Origin: an uncultured Cytophagales bacterium
GTDB taxonomy: Bacteria; Bacteroidota; Bacteroidia; Cytophagales; Cyclobacteriaceae
Length of the DNA stretch: 32,000 nt
Reading direction: 5' to 3'
Assembly (NCBI GenBank): GCA_963787095.1
Contig: CAWBCB010000152.1
Span: 5,119 to 37,118 of the forward strand
Position numbers and translations under genes: made by a program. Below, piece by piece: positions 32-23,750 of the stretch; position 1 is the stretch's first letter; each line of letters starts with the position of its first letter. The notes under the pieces were generated by a model. It made no database searches and was not told where the DNA came from. It worked only from the letters and a program-made list of their open reading frames with translations.

Positions 32-739
32 ATGAAAAAAAAGATCATTCCCATCCTTTCTATTGGCCTGATAGTAGCCGCGTTCATAGGCGGATTCTTT
101 TATGGCCGCATTACTCCGTCCCAATCGCCCCAGCAACTTACGTTGGAGCAAATCCTTTCTATCCGCGAGTTGCATTTGGTGAAACATACCTACACCGATT
201 TGTTTTTTATTCATAAGAACAACAACCCGGCAAAAGCGATCCGTGCGATGGTGCAAGTGCCCGTTACCATTACTGCTTTCTTAAATTTAAAAGACGTTGA
301 GTTAGTGTGGCAAAACGATTCACTGCGTTCTGTAATCTTACCGCGCGCAGCGTTGAACGAACCTGTGTATCATACCAACCGCATGGTAATTCGCGAAACG
401 AGATCGGTGCAAGTGCATGTTGGTAAAGATTTATATCCTGCCGTGGGTGACTACCTCGGCAAAACGATTGCTTCACGCATGGATACGGCACGGCAGTTGG
501 CCGAGTCGAACCGAATTTTAATTCAGGCTGAAGCCGAGGGCAAAGAATATCTTGAGAGTTTGCTAAAAGCATTGGGACATCAGCAGGTAGTGGTAACCTT
601 TAATGATGTTGCGCGCGATCAATTAGTAGCAGCGTATCAGGCTTCGTTGCAAACAAAGCCGATCCTTGCTCCCCCACGCACACGAGCGACTATGCAAAAA
701 GCATCTGTCATTCCGTTTGGATTTTTGCCGTTGGAGTAG
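32..739 (+). CDS. membrane-anchored hypothetical protein, DUF4230-like
   Basis: 235-aa ORF with ATG at 32. It has an N-terminal hydrophobic anchor (IIPILSIGLIVAAFIGGFFYG) followed by a soluble domain. The layout resembles DUF4230 proteins; this family call is from memory, not from a search. A strong hairpin follows at 746-783. Confidence 0.7.
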   Translation: MKKKIIPILSIGLIVAAFIGGFFYGRITPSQSPQQLTLEQILSIRELHLVKHTYTDLFFIHKNNNPAKAIRAMVQVPVTITAFLNLKDVELVWQNDSLRSVILPRAALNEPVYHTNRMVIRETRSVQVHVGKDLYPAVGDYLGKTIASRMDTARQLAESNRILIQAEAEGKEYLESLLKALGHQQVVVTFNDVARDQLVAAYQASLQTKPILAPPRTRATMQKASVIPFGFLPLE

Positions 740-5043: not shown

Positions 5044-5491
5044 TCATTTCTTACTGATTTGTGTTTCCTTATCAAGGGCAAGTACCGCCAACAACCGACC
5101 TCCAGAAACTACTTTGGAAGTGTAAGTGAGGGTAAATGTTTTGCGATCTGTTTTTTTGAATGCCATAATCTCACTTCCTTGAATGATCATAGCATCCTGA
5201 CCCTTTAGTGTCTGCGAACTTCCATTCCTTTAGCAGATGTCCGGCTTCGTCTTTCAATGACAGTTTTCGATTTGTTCCAACTTTCCCACATTCGTTATAA
5301 AATATAGTCACTACATCGTTGATCGAAGTAGTAGCTAACGAAACGCGGGGTGTAGCAGCCTTCGAGGTAAAGTAATGTTCAATTACCAATTTGTTGTTTA
5401 CGTGCATGGTAAACCCATCGCCACCGATGGGTGCGAATGAAGCCAACATGGCAACCAATGCAATTCCGGAAAGTACCTTGAGTGTTTTCAT
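5044..5491 (-). pseudogene. small secreted protein, apparently frame-disrupted (1 extra nt near 5195-5205)
   Basis: ORF 5171-5491 starts with a signal peptide (MKTLKVLSGIALVAMLASFA). After its stop, a second frame stays open for 50 codons (DAMIIQGSEIMAFKKTDRKTFTLTYTSKVVSGGRLLAVLALDKETQISKK) and ends at 5044, just before the terminator. The total span of 448 nt equals 3n+1. Confidence 0.55.
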
Positions 5492-5677
5492 AAGTTATGC
5501 GTTTAATTTTTTTTGATGTTAATTACGCACAAACACACTACACGTGTTTGAATCTTTGACCAGGTGCAACAAATGCTTGACGAATTGCACGAAGGCGTAA
5601 GAATATTGAGTTGGAATCATGTCATCAATAGATCAATCTTAACGGGTTAGAATAGTTAGAGATTGGGTGAAAATGTT

Positions 5678-5940
5678 GGTCAGGCGACCATAGTCGTTAA
5701 CTTAAGGATAAATTTTTTATAAAAGCCTTTATATGTCGTCCCTACAGGACTTAAATGCACTCGTCTATATTATTTACCAACATGTCGTCCCTAACGGGAC
5801 TCAAGTATAAAGACACCTTCCAGTCCCGAGGGATGAAATATTGGTAATAGACAACAGTACTCTTTTAAAAATCCCTTTAGGGATGAACTATTAATTCCTA
5901 TAAACAGAATGTATCGATCTCTTGTGCCTTCGTGCCTAAA
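5678..5940. repeat. mosaic of TCCC-N-GGGA hairpin modules in both orientations, bounded by inverted arms
   Basis: GGTCAGGCGACCATAGTCGTTAAC (5678-5701) is the inverse of GTTAACGACTATGGTC at 5941. Modules: ATGTCGTCCCTACAGGACT (5733-5751), TTACCAACATGTCGTCCCTAACGGGACT (5775-5801), AGTCCCGAGGGATGAAATATTGGTAA (5822-5847), ATCCCTTTAGGGATGAAC (5871-5888). Confidence 0.85.
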
Positions 5941-6700
5941 GTTAACGACTATGGTCAGGCGACCAGTCGTTACATAAGCATAGACGCGTATGAGAATTCT
6001 ACGTTTGACTTCACACAAACACTTTAGTGAATGTGGAATTTGTATTTCATCCCTATTACCAATATATAGTTCCTAACGATTTTGGAGGGAGACTTTATTT
6101 TAGTCCCATAGGGACGACATGTTGGTAACAATGAGAGCGAGGTGAATTAAAGTCCCATAGGGACGACATATTAATTTTCGCAAAGCATACCTTACGTTAA
6201 CGACTATGGTCAGACGGCCAGTCGTTACAAAAAGTATAGGCGCGTATGAGGATTCTACGTTTGACTTCACACAAACACTTTAGCGAAAGTGGAATTTGTA
6301 TTTCATCCCTATTACCAATATATAGTTCCTAACGATTTTTGGAGGGAGACTTTATTTTAGTCCCATAGGGACGACATGTTGGTAACAATGAGAGCGAGGT
6401 GAATTAAAGTCCCATAGGGACGACATATTAATTTTCGCAAAGCATACCTTACGTTAACGACTATGGTCAGACGGCCAGTCGTTACATAGAGCATAGGCGC
6501 GTATGAGGATTCTACGTTTGACTTCACACAAACACTTTAGTGAAAGTGGAATTTGTATTTCATCCCTATTACCAATATATAGTTCCTAACGACTTTGGAA
6601 GGAGACTTTATTTTAGTCCCATAGGGACGACATGTTGGTAACAATGAGGGCGAGGTGAATTAAAGTCCCATAGGGACGACATATTAATTTTAGCAAAAGC
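5941..6700. repeat. three direct tandem copies of a ~256-bp structured noncoding unit
   Basis: GTTAACGACTATGGTCAG starts at 5941, 6196 and 6453. Each unit has four elements. First, an AACGACT..GGTC-AGRC-GRCC-AGTCGTT hairpin. Second, an ACAAACACTTT-AGYG-AAAGTG-GAA-TTTGT hairpin. Third and fourth, two AGTCCC-ATA-GGGACGACAT hairpins 49 bp apart (e.g. 6103-6115 and 6152-6164). Confidence 0.95.
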
Positions 6701-6849
6701 TTCGTCATAGGCCGGTCAAGACAAAAAAGCACAACGCAAAGTAACCGTGATGAATCTTGCCTGATAAAGTGAGTAGGTTACTTGATGACACTCAACTTTG
6801 ATAATCATTATCTTGAGAGATTCTCAAAAAATAAACTACTTTTAGTTTT

Positions 6850-7413
6850 ATGGAAGGAAAACCACCTAAGAAAAAGAAGAAACCGGGTAGGGGACGAGAG
6901 ACCTTGTTTCGCTCGGCCTATCAAAACCAAAGCAACCTGATTCAAATGGCTGATAATAAAGCGAACATCATTATCAGTATCAACACCATGATCATCTCTT
7001 CCATTATTGCCATTACGGGTTACGGTGCAGTGGCCGGTAAAATAGATACCTATGAGGCAAGTGTAATGGTACCTATTGTAATGATCATTCTTTCCTGCCT
7101 GGTCTCTGTAATTTTTGCCATCCAGGCAGCACGCCCTAAATTAATTCAGGCGAAAGCCGAAGGCGGTGAAATGCAAAAGTCAAGTTTACTTTTTTTTGGT
7201 GTGATATCGCGACACTCCCAACAAGACTATCTGACTAAAATGAAAGACCTGCTAGACTCGGATACCGATTTGTATGAACACATGACTATCGACTTGCACA
7301 ATCAAGGGAAAATTTTGAAACGCAAATACAACTTGCTGGCCTATGCCTATCAGGTATTTATGTTTGGGTTTATCTTTAGTGTGTTGGTGTTTTTAGGGTT
7401 TCTTGCTTTTTAG
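6850..7413 (+). CDS. DUF5706 / PycTM-like (Pycsar-effector-type) membrane protein, stand-alone
   Basis: 187 aa. A Lys-rich N-terminus is followed by ETLFRSAYQNQSNLIQMADNKANIIISINTMIISS and hydrophobic helices (about 45-70, 75-100 and the C-terminal 165-187). It also carries the KRKYNLLAYAYQVFMFGF signature. I recognise this pattern as the membrane module fused to HD domains in Bacteroidota and found as the PycTM effector (Pfam PF18967). Confidence 0.85.
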   Translation: MEGKPPKKKKKPGRGRETLFRSAYQNQSNLIQMADNKANIIISINTMIISSIIAITGYGAVAGKIDTYEASVMVPIVMIILSCLVSVIFAIQAARPKLIQAKAEGGEMQKSSLLFFGVISRHSQQDYLTKMKDLLDSDTDLYEHMTIDLHNQGKILKRKYNLLAYAYQVFMFGFIFSVLVFLGFLAF

Positions 7414-7427
7414 AAACTGGAAACATT

Positions 7428-8507
7428 TCAAAACTGATAAACAACGGCATTGATATTCATACCGGCACCTACCGAAGCAAATACAATTTTTTCGCCTGAA
7501 TGGATAACCTGATTCTTTCATTTGTCTTTTTCAACATCAGATCGAGCAAGGTAGGGATGGTGGCCACAGAACTATTGCCTAACCACGAAATGCTCATGGG
7601 CATAATGCTCGGATTGGTAAATTCCAGATCATATAATTTAAAGAGTCGTTGCACAATGGCTTCGTCCATCTTTTCGTTGGCCTGATGGATAAGGATTTTG
7701 CTGATCTCTGAAAGGTGGGTATTGGCTTTGTCGAGTGCCAGCTTCACTACGTGGGGCACGTAGGTTAAAGCAAACTCATACAACTTACGACCATTCATTT
7801 TTATATAAAGATCACTGCTGCCATGCTGGATGTCGTAGCTGATGATCCATGTTTAGCAAATGCGCATGCTCAAGGGTATGGGTTTGAGTTTTATGAGCCA
7901 GAATTCCTTCGCTTCCTGTCCTTCCTTCTAAAATAACGGCCCCGGCACCATCTGCATAAATCATAGAATCGCGATCGTGTGGATCAATGATGCGCGATAA
8001 TGTTTCCGCGCCAATAATTAAGCAGCGCTTGGCATCTCCCGATTTAATGAAATAGTTTGCCTGGATAACACCTTCCAGCCAACCAGGACAACCAAATGGA
8101 AGATCGTACGCAACACAATCTGGATTTTTTATTTGTAACAAATATTTTATCCGCGAGGCTAATGTGGGCACCATATCCACGCGATTGCTATTATGAGCAA
8201 CATCTCCAAAGTTGTGTGCTACAATTAAATAATCAATAGTTTCTTTGTCTATGCCTGAACTTTCGAATGCTTGTAAAGCAGCCAGATAGCCAAGGTCTGA
8301 TGCTTTTTGTTCGGGTAACGCATAGCACCGATCTTCAATCCCTGTTATGGATTTGAATTTTTCAACAATAGTCTTAACATCCTTAGTAATGGGAGATCCA
8401 TTCTTCTCAAAAAAGGTATGATTAAGAAAATGAGCGTTGTTAATTTTTATTTCTGGGATGTGACAGCCCGAAGCGACAATAACAGATTGAATAGAATGAT
8501 TCTGCAT
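7428..8507 (-). pseudogene. FabH-like 3-oxoacyl-ACP synthase III (KAS III family) with two compensating frame shifts
   Basis: Three frame segments together reconstitute a 360-codon KAS III. The N-terminal part (8507-~7850) has the active-site Cys context DLPFGCPGW. The middle part (~7850-~7520, other frame) has HQANEKM and GNSSVATIP. The C-terminal part (~7517-7428, back in the first frame) reads KNQVIHSGEKIVFASVGAGMNINAVVYQF*. The span of 1080 nt is divisible by 3. Confidence 0.85.
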
Positions 8508-8676
8508 GCGTTACAGATCGGATTTTAGTTAGGTGGCACGAATGTACTTTTCCAACTATCATGGTACAACTATTTCAAATAAATCCTTTAAACAATGAAC
8601 GCTCGTAAGTAAACTGAAATCTCCTTTTATCTTAGCTCAATTTTTTCAATCTTCCTGAAATTTAGAAGCTACCTCA

Positions 8677-9633
8677 ATGAGTGTAACATTAGATAAACTG
8701 TTAGGCATCGATTACCCCGTAATTGTGGCCCCTATGTTTTTGATCTCCAATACGAAGATGATTAAGGCTGCGCTGGCCAATGGAGTGACCGCTGCTTTCC
8801 CCGCGTTGAATTATCGCACCGATGAAGAGCTTAGGGCAGCCATTGCTGAGATCAAATCGGCTACCGATAAACCCTTTGGTGTCAACCTGATTGTTAATAA
8901 ATCAAACCCAAAATATAAAGGGCAATTAGAAACACTTCTTGAATTAAAAGTAGGGTTCATTATTACTTCCCTGGGTAATCCGTTTGAGGTGATTGAAAAA
9001 TGTAAACCATTGGGAATTAAAGTGTTTTGCGATGTGGTGGACTTAGCGTACGCAAAAAAGGTTGAAAGCCAGGGGGCAGATGCCGTGATCGCAGTCAATA
9101 ATCGTGCAGGGGGTCATGCCGGAAAGCTATCGCCCAAAGAGTTGGTAACACTCTTGAAAGAGAATTGTAACATCCCGGTAATTTCTGCCGGGGGCATAGC
9201 CCATGGCAAAGATTTAAAAGAAGCAATGAGTTGGGGGGCTGCAGGGGCATCGATAGGCACCATCTTTATTGCGTGTGAAGAAGCGGATATTTCACAAGAG
9301 TATAAACAAGCCATGATTGATTATGGGGAGAAAGACATAGTGATGACTACAAAGTTATCAGGCTCGGCACTCACCGTGATCAATACACCGTATGTGCAAC
9401 AATTGGGTACGAAAGCGAATTGGTTGGAGCGCATTCTCAATAACAATAAAACATTGAAGAAGTATGCCAAAATGATTATTGCTTACCGCGGAATGAAGCA
9501 AGTGGAAAACGCTGCTTTTGGAGCTACCTATAAAACAGTGTGGTGTGCAGGTCCGGCTATTGAACATGTTCACAGCGTTCGACCGATGGCAGAGATTATA
9601 AAAACGTTGACACAAGAATATGATGCGGCATGA
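8677..9633 (+). CDS. nitronate monooxygenase / FabK-like NAD(P)H-dependent flavin oxidoreductase family protein
   Basis: 318 aa. TIM-barrel NMO pattern: YPVIVAPMFLISN, GVNLIV, GADAVIAVNNRAGGH, PVISAGGIAHGKD. Confidence 0.88.
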   Translation: MSVTLDKLLGIDYPVIVAPMFLISNTKMIKAALANGVTAAFPALNYRTDEELRAAIAEIKSATDKPFGVNLIVNKSNPKYKGQLETLLELKVGFIITSLGNPFEVIEKCKPLGIKVFCDVVDLAYAKKVESQGADAVIAVNNRAGGHAGKLSPKELVTLLKENCNIPVISAGGIAHGKDLKEAMSWGAAGASIGTIFIACEEADISQEYKQAMIDYGEKDIVMTTKLSGSALTVINTPYVQQLGTKANWLERILNNNKTLKKYAKMIIAYRGMKQVENAAFGATYKTVWCAGPAIEHVHSVRPMAEIIKTLTQEYDAA

Positions 9634-10388
9634 TGAACGAAAAAGATCACTGGAATAGAATAGCACCTACTTACAATGATGAGATTTTTGATGTGTTCAA
9701 CAATGATAAATATAAGAAGCTTCCCAGGTACTTTAAGAAACACGGAGGCTTAAGCAAAGCAGCCATTGACTTTGGGTGTGGCAATGGAAAATCATTTCCC
9801 TATATCGCTCCACTCTTTAAAAAGATACTTGCACTCGATATTTCAAAAGGATTACTGAAGCAGGCAGAACAACGCGGGTTCAAAAATATAACCTTAAAGC
9901 AAGCTGATTTAACAAAAAAGAAACTCGTTTTACCTAAAGCTGATTTTGCGTTTTGTTGTAACGTAATCATGTTCCCCGTTCTTGAGAAGAATTATCAAAT
10001 GATTGATAATGTTTATCAATCCTTGAAGCCAGGCGGAACAGCGTTACTGGTACTGCCCTCACTCGACTCGGCCATATTTTCTGCCTTGCGAATGATAGAT
10101 GTATATAGAAAGGAAGGCGTTCAGCCTCAAGATATTCCGAAGAGCGAGTTTGATTATTTCAAAGCCAACAAACTTGATTTAATTCAAGGCCTCATTCATA
10201 TTGACGGGGTACCAACAAAGCATTACAGTGAGTCTGAAATTAAAGTGGTCTTCAGAGATTCCGGATTTACAGTTACCGCTGTGGATAAACTGGAGTATGA
10301 TTGGCATACAGAGATGACTTCACCGCCTAAATGGCTTAAAGATCCTTACCCGTGGGATTGGCTGGTGGAGTTGAGAAAACCTAAATGA
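9630..10388 (+). CDS. class I SAM-dependent methyltransferase
   Basis: 252 aa. Motif I is IDFGCGNGK and the post-I/II region reads LKPGGTALLV. The start overlaps the upstream stop (ATGA, 9630-9633), implying co-transcription. Confidence 0.88.
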   Translation: MMNEKDHWNRIAPTYNDEIFDVFNNDKYKKLPRYFKKHGGLSKAAIDFGCGNGKSFPYIAPLFKKILALDISKGLLKQAEQRGFKNITLKQADLTKKKLVLPKADFAFCCNVIMFPVLEKNYQMIDNVYQSLKPGGTALLVLPSLDSAIFSALRMIDVYRKEGVQPQDIPKSEFDYFKANKLDLIQGLIHIDGVPTKHYSESEIKVVFRDSGFTVTAVDKLEYDWHTEMTSPPKWLKDPYPWDWLVELRKPK

Positions 10389-10466
10389 TTTGTAAGGAAG
10401 TCTAACAACTTAGTCTTTTCATTTTTTACCTTTGAGAATTCACATTAAATTCTAATCAACAACTTT

Positions 10467-12089
10467 ATGTCGGCTATTTTTAAAACCTTGTTACCTGCCT
10501 TCTTTCTAGTAATCTTTTTTCAATCGTGTATGGAAAAAGAATCAACAACGGATTTGACTAAGCAAAGCTTAATCCCTAAACCGGTTAGTGTTATTGCTAC
10601 CGGTAAACGATTTGTGTTAACAAAAGAATCGGTAATATATGTTGAAGAGGGGAACGGAGAATTAGTTTCCGTTGCGCAAAGACTTGCTTCTCAACTGAAC
10701 GCATCTACAGGGTTTACAAATAAAATTGAAACTGTATCATCTCCACCTAAAGCTGGTTTCTATTTAGTATCTGGTGTTGAAGATCAGGAATTAGGAACGG
10801 AGGGGTACGAACTTATTGTTGAGAAAGAATTGATTACCCTTCGGGCAGCCCAACCAATGGGTGTTTTTAGAGGTGCCCAAACCCTGACACAACTTGTTAC
10901 GAGTGGTGAAGGCGACACGCAAAATCTTTGGTCGATTGCAACGGGTTCAATTCGCGATTACCCCACCTATGCATGGCGGGGATCTATGCTTGATGTGGCT
11001 CGTCATTTTTTTAGTGTGGATGATGTGAAGCGTTACATTGATTTGATCAGCTATTATAAGATGAATATTCTGCACCTGCATTTAAGTGATGATCAGGGCT
11101 GGCGCATTGAAATCAAATCGTGGCCTAACTTGGCATTGCATGGTGGCAAGACACAAGTAGGAGGTGGCACGGGCGGATACTATACACAAGAGCAATACAA
11201 AGACATTGTTGCCTATGCGGCTAGCCGGTATATTACGATTGTTCCTGAAATCGATTTACCAGGTCATATCAATTCTGCGTTAGCTTCCTATGGAGAATTA
11301 AATGGTGGAATCAAGTTTCCTTTAGAAGGTGGATATAATAGTCCAACAGAAACACAAGAAGTATTGGGTGGTAAAAACAAACCTACACAGTTATATACTG
11401 GAATAGAGGTTGGATGGAGTACACTTTATCTGGATAAACCTGAGACCTTCAAATTTGTGAATGATGTAATTCGGGAGCTTGCCGAAATAACACCGGGTCC
11501 TTATTTACACATTGGGGGCGATGAAGCCCATGCTACTAAGAAGGAAGACTATATTGAATTCATCAATCGCTTTTCTGAGATTGTAAAAGCAAACGGGAAG
11601 AAGATGATTGGGTGGGAAGAAATTGCGCAAGCCAACATTGATCAAAATGCCATTGCCCAACATTGGGAAAACCCTAAGTATGCGCAAATGGCCGCGGACA
11701 AGGGGGCACAAATAATTATGTCGCCCTCCAAGCGTGTTTACATCGATATGCAATACGATTCTACTTCCCGGTTAGGATTGCATTGGGCAGCTTATATTGA
11801 AGTAGATGATGCATACAATTGGGATCCGGCAACCCAAGTGGATGGAATTGGCAAAGATCAAATACTAGGAGTGGAAACTCCCCTTTGGAGTGAAACGATC
11901 GTAACAATGGATGATATTGAATATATGTTATTCCCGCGCATGCCCGGGATCGCTGAAATAGCTTGGTCACCAGCAACCGGAAGAAGTTGGGATGAATATA
12001 AAGTACGTCTGGGAAATCATGCTCCGTTTATGAGAACCCGCGGAATTGATTTCTATCCTTCCACCAGAGTGAAGTGGGCTGAAAAATAA
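10467..12089 (+). CDS. beta-N-acetylhexosaminidase (GH20), lipoprotein
   Basis: 540 aa. Lipobox FFQSC. GH20 catalytic-domain hallmarks are present: RGSMLDVARHF, ILHLHLSDDQGWRIEI, HIGGDE, W..E. Confidence 0.94.
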   Translation: MSAIFKTLLPAFFLVIFFQSCMEKESTTDLTKQSLIPKPVSVIATGKRFVLTKESVIYVEEGNGELVSVAQRLASQLNASTGFTNKIETVSSPPKAGFYLVSGVEDQELGTEGYELIVEKELITLRAAQPMGVFRGAQTLTQLVTSGEGDTQNLWSIATGSIRDYPTYAWRGSMLDVARHFFSVDDVKRYIDLISYYKMNILHLHLSDDQGWRIEIKSWPNLALHGGKTQVGGGTGGYYTQEQYKDIVAYAASRYITIVPEIDLPGHINSALASYGELNGGIKFPLEGGYNSPTETQEVLGGKNKPTQLYTGIEVGWSTLYLDKPETFKFVNDVIRELAEITPGPYLHIGGDEAHATKKEDYIEFINRFSEIVKANGKKMIGWEEIAQANIDQNAIAQHWENPKYAQMAADKGAQIIMSPSKRVYIDMQYDSTSRLGLHWAAYIEVDDAYNWDPATQVDGIGKDQILGVETPLWSETIVTMDDIEYMLFPRMPGIAEIAWSPATGRSWDEYKVRLGNHAPFMRTRGIDFYPSTRVKWAEK

Positions 12090-12252
12090 AAGCCCTAGGA
12101 ATTAAATCTTGTTTAAATAGTATGTCTGTGTCATGCGCATGTTTTATTATCCATTTAGTGCGATCATGATCATATTTCGGATTGACAAATATCATCTTTA
12201 ATGAAAGGATGTTGAATAACTTTGCTGGTGAATAAATAAACAATTCCATAGA

Positions 12253-21809: not shown

Positions 21810-23750
<1,941 letters not shown>

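Follow-up and report, generated by a model that had tools for sequence, protein, structure and literature searches.

A stand-alone PycTM-family membrane protein gene of an uncultured Cytophagales bacterium, not associated with any cyclase or HD domain or with the repeats upstream of it

The DNA studied here is a stretch of 32,000 nt, referred to below as the window, from an uncultured Cytophagales bacterium (GenBank assembly GCA_963787095.1, contig CAWBCB010000152.1, positions 5,119 to 37,118 of the forward strand). Its subject is an open reading frame (ORF) whose product belongs to the PycTM family of small membrane proteins. A first-pass annotation, made from the sequence of the window alone, had rightly described this gene as an ATG-started ORF encoding 187 aa, with an array of long repeats upstream and a convergent FabH-like gene downstream (Table 1). 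In Pycsar systems, PycTM has been described as a receptor of cyclic mononucleotides (cNMP) that disrupts membrane integrity (PMC11224242). We showed that the gene in the window has no link with the repeats and stands apart from any cyclase or HD domain, and that it is an ordinary lineage-wide gene, a family member characteristic of the Ohtaekwangia/Chryseolinea-type clade of Cytophagales.

Table 1. Features at the PycTM-family locus of the window; protein segments are given in residues of the 187-aa product (TM, transmembrane helix; 3TM, three transmembrane helices)
Feature	Position	Strand	Basis or composition
PycTM-family gene, 187-aa stand-alone 3TM membrane protein	6850..7413	+	ATG ORF, Pfam, PADLOC, hydropathy, dN/dS, orthologues
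Predicted cytosolic N-terminal tail, K/R-rich	residues 1-37
TM1	residues ~38-62		Kyte-Doolittle hydrophobic segment
Short outer loop, predicted
TM2	residues ~72-95		Kyte-Doolittle hydrophobic segment
Predicted cytosolic helical insert	residues ~96-163
TM3	residues ~164-187		Kyte-Doolittle hydrophobic segment
A/T-rich conserved element AAAAATAAACTACTTTTAGTTTT	6820..6849	+	outside repeats, directly before ATG
257-bp repeat array	5677..6697	.	inverted partial copy 5677-5900 and three direct copies 5935-6697
FabH-like (ketoacyl-ACP synthase III) gene, convergent	7428..8507	-	Pfam ACP_syn_III and ACP_syn_III_C on two ORFs

The proposed assignment of the product to PF18967 was borne out. The protein matched this Pfam family ('PycTM, Pycsar effector protein', formerly DUF5706) with 93.1 bits (E 1.7e-26), well over the curated gathering score of 27.2 bits, and residues 70-173 were aligned to profile positions 7-107 of 107. 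The PycTM models of PADLOC agreed (E 1.7e-20, 2.5e-18 and 7e-18, respectively), and the best PADLOC match was PDLC00700, a '2TM' effector model of the cyclic-oligonucleotide-based anti-phage signalling systems (CBASS), with E 1.3e-21 for residues 32-185 against model positions 20-168 of 173. Together, the PycTM and 2TM models align residues ~21-185, nearly the entire protein. No other significant Pfam family was found on the protein, one match to the membrane family 8xMP being sub-threshold, and neither NCBIfam nor a sequence search of the Protein Data Bank (PDB) gave a match.

The TM helices that had been claimed were recovered as three hydrophobic segments by hydropathy analysis. There are 10 K/R among the N-terminal 37 residues, and the 68 residues between TM2 and TM3 hold 10 K/R and 9 D/E, which by the positive-inside rule suggests a topology with the N-terminus inside and a cytosolic insert. 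An AlphaFold2 (AF2) monomer built from a 39-sequence alignment, of low confidence (mean predicted local distance difference test, pLDDT, 61.6), folds into three long helices with a helical insert and a short beta hairpin (helices 14-61, 70-94, 124-136 and 138-186, hairpin 103-108), and it resembles qualitatively the published description of EcPucTM (10.64898/2026.08.12.744502). Hydropathy, AF2 and PADLOC are thereby in agreement on the architecture of the 3TM effectors, that is, three TM helices in a small protein, with a mostly helical cytosolic insert between TM2 and TM3.

Eighteen stand-alone and HD-fused members from Cytophagales, Hymenobacter, Saprospiraceae, Gemmatimonadota and Proteobacteria were aligned, and residues A34, D35, K37, P96, K159 and Y160 were invariant, while N39, A93, F116, D148, L156 and G173 were nearly so. 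The motif ADxKxN precedes TM1, A93 and P96 mark the end of TM2, the insert contains F116 and D148, and L156 and K159-Y160 precede TM3; with the exception of G173, within TM3, the conserved residues would thus all be located where a TM helix is predicted to meet the cytoplasm, or in the cytosolic insert itself. The N-terminal segment ETLFR...ADNKAN had been named as the hallmark of the family. It falls outside the Pfam match, but the ADxK within it is invariant in the 18 sequences.

A large protein collection contained 399 homologues, and the best 120 of the 399 were all 182-214 aa long and 70-99% identical, with PF18967 as the sole domain; a profile search of a large protein collection brought back largely these close homologues again. 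Over 100 metagenome clusters also carry a stand-alone protein of ~187 aa with the same Lys-rich start. A genome scan with one genome per species gave 71 loci (numbered below with the prefix L), and the comparison at the level of assembly accessions covered 65 genomes. Orthologues with 64-97% identity were found at 37 species-level genome loci (L001-L037), whose sources are metagenome-assembled genomes labelled Ohtaekwangia, Chryseolinea, Cyclobacteriaceae, Flammeovirgaceae or Cytophagales. The product is stand-alone at all 37, nearly always with a length of 186-227 aa (one call is of 149 aa), and the orthologues start alike, with 'ME.KPPKKKK.GRGRETLFR'. In the comparison of loci that the first-pass annotation had recommended, HD-fused versions were met at 34-40% identity, at L038-L065, where mostly ~400-aa proteins are encoded with an HD domain followed by the 3TM module. 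That HD fusions exist in Bacteroidota had been stated before, and the HD plus PycTM architecture was verified by Pfam in L060 and L073.

The ratio of nonsynonymous to synonymous substitution rates (dN/dS, Nei-Gojobori) of the window gene against L001, L002, L003, L005 and L008 was 0.069, 0.021, 0.019, 0.025 and 0.033, respectively, with dS in these pairs from 0.5 to >3 and reaching saturation. Since dN/dS against the orthologues is 0.02-0.07, ORF 6850-7413 is not a chance ORF, and strong purifying selection acts on an intact gene. The protein shares 97% identity with its L001 counterpart, and its neighbours share 78-96% with theirs, which places it among the best-conserved proteins of the neighbourhood. 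The gene appears to be single-copy in the sampled genomes.

In a neighbour-joining tree of 160 3TM modules, drawn without support values, all 24 members of the clade of the window protein are stand-alone, as are 29 of the 51 members of the enclosing clade, and the remainder of the tree is mostly HD-fused. Judged from these modules, the clade of the window protein is deep and consists purely of stand-alone forms, and it neighbours the ~400-aa HD-fused forms of other Bacteroidota. The Lys-rich start does resemble the linker of the HD-PycTM proteins by alignment, as had been noticed; on the sequence comparison this likeness to the HD-3TM linker reflects old shared ancestry and not recent truncation, and any loss of an HD domain would be ancient and unrelated to the repeats. 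The stand-alone form (~190 aa) and the HD-fused form (~400 aa) occurred together in none of the 65 genomes by assembly accession, and sister genera differ, Chryseolinea having the stand-alone and Chryseosolibacter the fused form. Because the two forms are never found together and sister genera differ in them, they suggest functionally equivalent alternatives.

No match was found in phage genomes by tblastn or in viral contigs by a profile scan. The only plasmid matches by tblastn were on three large (238-859 kb), non-mobilizable Cytophagales plasmids, of which the two with annotation carry forms of 387 and 406 aa, the latter being HD plus PycTM by Pfam. The phage, plasmid and viral-contig searches yielded no bona fide cyclase-linked PycTM gene for motif comparison.

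The absence of a cyclase and of an HD domain from the window, which the first-pass annotation had asserted, was upheld by several searches. Neither was present in the 34 other window ORFs of at least 100 aa, tblastn with cyclase and HD queries against the 32-kb window returned nothing, and phmmer with five class III cyclase seeds detected none in the window or within 8 kb in L001-L010. No PycC/PucC cyclase is adjacent to the gene in the window. The 187-aa protein has no N-terminal HD domain by Pfam, and no HD homologue was detected in the window or near the stand-alone orthologues of L001-L037. For the HD part of a fused relative, the only PDB match was a 'predicted HD superfamily hydrolase', and NCBIfam was uninformative.

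The genes upstream in the window encode DUF4230, a cytochrome c, DUF4142 and a small secreted protein, and those downstream encode FabH-like, nitronate monooxygenase-like, methyltransferase, GH20 and DUF4136 proteins. Among the ten nearest proteins, the one PADLOC match was partial, to a generic methyltransferase domain; the neighbours are metabolic or housekeeping, and neither a defence island nor a mobile element forms the context. The stretch from the PycTM gene to FabH varies: it is 14 bp in the window, contains cysK and cysE in L001 (L001:8564-10500), and in L002-L004, where it lies at ~8560-12200, contains a convergent gene for a 410-aa SPFH/Band-7 protein, with further genes in L003 and L004. 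In two other lineages the gene is found in an amidohydrolase/aldehyde dehydrogenase context and in a context of histidine biosynthesis, ferritin and cell-wall genes, respectively. The neighbourhood is not conserved, and the gene sits in different housekeeping contexts by lineage. The sole recurrent same-strand neighbour is a multi-pass membrane protein of 247-274 aa, with a sub-threshold Bestrophin_2 match (E 0.01), encoded 67-138 bp upstream in 12 more distant orthologous loci (L004 (7212-7955), L005, L008, L009, L012, L013, L016, L017, L019, L024, L030 and L037) and absent from the window.

The repeats upstream had been described as 1.36 kb of a 256-bp unit. The array is real, but its period is 257 bp and it does not take up the whole distance: repeats fill ~1.0 kb of the 1358-bp intergenic region, and 152 nt of non-repeat sequence separate the array from the ATG. 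The direct copies are 95-100% identical, and the inverted partial copy is diverged, roughly 80% matching. The hairpin motif AGTCCCATAGGGACGACAT occurs twice in each 257-bp unit, which also has a longer palindrome, GTTAACGACTATGGTCAG..CCAGTCGTTAC. L001 keeps both flanks of the array (window 5493-5690 corresponds to L001:5695-5921, and window 6722-6823 to L001:6030-6134), with ~1030 bp between them exchanged for ~110 bp of other sequence. One unit at ~70% identity is found at the same intergenic position in L002 (L002:7668-7901), and no array match was obtained in L003 or in any other of the remaining 35 of the 37 orthologous loci. The closest relatives (96-97% aa identity) therefore have either no array (L001, L003) or one diverged unit (L002). 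By these comparisons, the array is a lineage-specific expansion and not part of the conserved unit of the gene, and we infer an unrelated, recent tandem amplification of an intergenic element.

An Rfam search of the entire window, at E up to 1, gave nothing credible. Compared with shuffled controls, the repeat unit folds better on both strands alike (z -3.0 and -2.7), and this equal signal is as expected of palindromic DNA. Over 5400-7600, a sigma-70 promoter scan found fewer promoter-like sites than in shuffled sequence, and in a terminator scan the only terminator-like sites of the array were the repeat's own hairpins on the minus strand. The hairpin motif AGTCCCNNNGGGACGACAT occurs in at least 120 metagenome contigs, most of the single matches being at chance level by a rough estimate for 16 specified bases and the size of the collection; blastn of the whole upstream region with the array against these contigs returned only matches of 24-78 nt, which are uninformative on the origin of the repeat.

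The 30-nt element directly before the ATG behaves differently from the array. It is nearly invariant in the window and L001-L005, and the sequence farther upstream is unrelated; in L004 and L005 the end of another gene lies ~45-95 bp upstream. The -7 motif of Bacteroidota promoters is TAnnTTTG, and the element resembles it with one mismatch. The element is probably the promoter-proximal or translation-initiation region of the gene itself. Because it is kept independently of the repeats and is -7-like, the gene appears to carry its own proximal control region.

Set beside known systems, the protein shares with the PycTM and PucTM effectors, as compared via the Pfam and PADLOC models, homology over nearly its full length, the small size, the three TM helices and the helical cytosolic insert between TM2 and TM3, but it has a poly-Lys N-terminal tail and an ADxKxN motif in common with the HD-fused Bacteroidota proteins. 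The locus does not qualify as a Pycsar or Pucsar system, since a cyclase next to the effector gene defines these systems and the test for one found none; unlike those systems, it also lies outside a defence island or mobile element and is vertically conserved under strong purifying selection. The ~400-aa HD-DUF5706 fusions are alike over the whole 3TM module (34-40% identity), have the same juxtamembrane motifs and the preceding Lys-rich segment, and are also mostly without an adjacent cyclase, whereas their N-terminal HD domain of ~200 aa is lacking in the window protein and no HD homologue is nearby. The CBASS '2TM' effectors, the best PADLOC match, belong to the same superfamily of small helical membrane effectors, but no CD-NTase or other CBASS gene was found in the window. 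To SpdB3 of the Streptomyces plasmids pJV1 and pSVH1, the likeness consists in a 3TM family name given in a preprint (10.64898/2026.08.12.744502), and SpdB3 differs in having a plasmid-spreading function on an actinomycete plasmid.

The whole explanation to which we give slightly better than even odds is that of a functional, vertically inherited stand-alone PycTM-family protein, probably a gated channel with a physiological role, to which the array is unrelated. In the same preprint, PycTM and PucTM are classed as 'pJV1-SpdB3 family 3TM' proteins, and apo EcPucTM, determined by cryo-EM at 2.67 A, forms a six-fold cylinder with three TM helices per protomer, in which TM2 lines a channel of ~15 A and the helical cytosolic region bears a small beta appendage (10.64898/2026.08.12.744502). 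By homology to this hexamer, the window protein would assemble into a ring-shaped oligomeric membrane channel. Gating of the channel might take place on its cytoplasmic side, through a small ligand or partner that is provided in trans, and in the HD-fused relatives the HD domain could supply or modulate the gating input. From the sequence comparisons, the most likely role is a physiological one (membrane or ion homeostasis, or signalling) and not abortive infection.

Several points weigh against this explanation. The AF2 model is poor, and a Foldseek search of it against a PDB copy lacking the EcPucTM structure returned noise only (best E 0.78). Channel formation and gating are extrapolated from a distant, cyclase-linked homologue that is described only in a preprint, and high conservation by itself does not exclude a defence role. 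Moreover, class III cyclase ORFs are present within 5 kb in 8 of 73 related loci, so a loose cNMP link is possible. In L011 a response-regulator-cyclase lies 46 bp downstream in convergent orientation, and the same gene is 4.5 kb away in L022; L021 and L032 have a cyclase-TPR protein 2.1 kb upstream, and the Gemmatimonadota loci L040 and L055 have a convergent one ~0.9 kb downstream. Two cyclases are adjacent on the same strand. One, at L025:395-895, is a fragment without the first ~32 profile positions (159 bits to PF00211) located 66 bp upstream of an orthologue with 82% identity; the other, in L073 (Fulvitalea axinellae plasmid pFA2), is a membrane-anchored cyclase (5784-6992) located 262 bp downstream of the HD-fused form. 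These two pairings may be due to chance or may be rare true cNMP pairings outside classical Pycsar. A hidden Pycsar-like pairing in the relatives was considered and not adopted, as the cyclase domain types, distances and orientations are inconsistent; the nearby cyclases are read as the background of cyclase-rich genomes.

The first-pass annotation had also proposed that the protein is a stand-alone effector responding to a signal made elsewhere. In a Pycsar/Pucsar form of this proposal, it would be a genuine abortive-infection effector, activated by cCMP, cUMP or cGMP from a PycC/PucC-like cyclase encoded at another place in the genome. A signal made elsewhere is possible, and this proposal draws on the full-length homology to the PADLOC PycTM models, on family members that are cNMP-activated effectors (PMC11224242; 10.64898/2026.08.12.744502) and on the class III cyclases near some relatives. 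Yet there is no cyclase in the window or within 8 kb in L001-L010, and the cyclases of the relatives vary in type and position, several being convergent, and do not form a conserved two-gene operon. Defence genes are typically patchy, mobile and fast-evolving, and the conservation and context of this gene (very low dN/dS, an apparently single copy, housekeeping neighbours, no phage or viral match in the collections searched) speak against a role in defence, so that we regard an effector of this kind as unlikely. Similarly doubtful is a structural or accessory membrane protein without channel activity, for instance a partner of neighbouring membrane proteins such as the bestrophin-like 247-274-aa protein, upstream on the same strand in 12 loci, or the SPFH/Band-7 protein, whose gene is convergent just downstream in L002-L004: such neighbours are absent from the window, L001 and many other loci, the Bestrophin_2 match is sub-threshold, and the characterised family members affect membrane integrity or form a channel-like ring (PMC11224242; 10.64898/2026.08.12.744502).

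Two further readings had tied the gene to the array. In one, the gene was the 3' remnant of an HD-DUF5706 fusion whose 5' half the array had replaced, a view that fits the linker-like Lys-rich start and the presence of HD fusions in related families. It is refuted by the relatives, which carry the same stand-alone gene without the repeats: 37 of 37 orthologous loci are stand-alone with the same start, L001 and L003 lack the array at 96-97% aa identity, the clade is stand-alone in 24 of 24 members, the gene is under strong purifying selection, and no HD remnant was detected in the window. We consider a remnant extremely improbable. The other reading, a module like the type III toxin-antitoxin systems (ToxIN, CptIN, TenpIN) in which a 257-bp repeat RNA would neutralise a toxic membrane protein, we reject as less credible still. 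The formal order of array, gap and gene is alike, the fold of the unit is more stable than that of shuffled controls (z about -3), and SpdB3, a homologue by family name, is a membrane protein toxic on over-expression in E. coli (PMC4447253). However, type III systems keep repeats of ~36 nt together with an endoribonuclease toxin of the ToxN/AbiQ/CptN type, whereas the window protein is a membrane protein without an RNase domain, for which the only significant matches were PycTM in Pfam and membrane-effector models in PADLOC. The 257-nt unit belongs to an array that is unique to the source genome and unlinked to the gene in other lineages, the upstream regions of the orthologues showing no match except the single diverged unit of L002; the fold signal is equal on both strands, no Rfam family was found, and the conserved element beside the ATG is kept whether or not the array is there.

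A broader idea, which we hold only as a speculative one with a low probability, is that stand-alone and HD-fused DUF5706 proteins of Bacteroidota, and of Gemmatimonadota and some Proteobacteria, make up a housekeeping branch of PycTM, as ligand-gated oligomeric membrane channels operating on the cell's own second-messenger signalling and not in phage defence. Such genomes have many class III cyclase genes, and the HD domain could then be a built-in phosphodiesterase or sensor. If true, the branch would be a candidate for the origin of the Pycsar/Pucsar pore effectors or for a domesticated offshoot of them.

In public databases such proteins are named 'DUF5706 domain-containing protein' or 'Pycsar system effector family protein', and some are mislabelled 'metal-dependent phosphohydrolase'; no paper mentioning DUF5706 was found in the literature searched. 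Such labels could make scans count the protein as an orphan or degraded defence system. Since a large branch of PF18967 is cyclase-less, vertically inherited and strongly constrained, the presence of such a protein is by itself no ground for calling Pycsar. The family is already known, and its modest interest lies in this large, constrained, cyclase-less branch and in the two forms that never co-occurred in the sampled genomes; this lack of co-occurrence of the stand-alone and HD-fused forms is a tractable entry to the role of the 3TM module outside immunity.

The convergent FabH-like gene that had been noted downstream is present, but is read in three frame segments (frames -1/-2/-1 by tblastn with the FabH of L002) with two frameshifts, near 7841 and 7529; its real stop is at 7428, with 14 bp between it and the PycTM stop. 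Frameshifts were also seen in the gene of a 149-aa secreted protein (5044-5491, near 5200) and in GroEL (21810-23442, with ORFs overlapping at 22384-22451). Because GroEL is among the broken genes, the frameshifts suggest assembly indel errors and not pseudogenes. The PycTM ORF is untouched by them.

Some observations were made on the surroundings of the gene in relatives. The upstream region of L001 is rearranged, the 124-aa and DUF4142 genes having moved between the 106-aa gene and the PycTM gene, and L003 has a DUF559 endonuclease-like gene (L003:6252-6818) upstream of the homologue of the 106-aa gene (hyp106). Proteins of ~860 aa with TolB_N and TPR are encoded ~0.7-1.5 kb from the orthologue in L021 (9742-12351), L031, L032, L034, L035 and L036; their N-terminus 'YDIFISYRHNDN' looks TIR-like by eye, and Pfam called no TIR domain.

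As to the nature of the 257-bp array, an element like a miniature inverted-repeat transposable element, one like a repetitive extragenic palindrome, and a satellite are candidates. The 2-kb gap that separates the DUF4230 gene from the cytochrome c gene has three further tandem arrays, at 898-1031, 1209-1673 and 2314-2448 (periods 71, 198 and 67 bp, respectively). A common unit, 'GCGCGACCCGGAATCTAC..AAAAGTGGTTCGTGG.ACACGAACCACGG', is present in two of the three; it contains a hairpin reminiscent of sequence in the L002 copy of the 257-bp repeat, and the corresponding DUF4230-cytochrome c gap in L001 is larger (3.3 kb).

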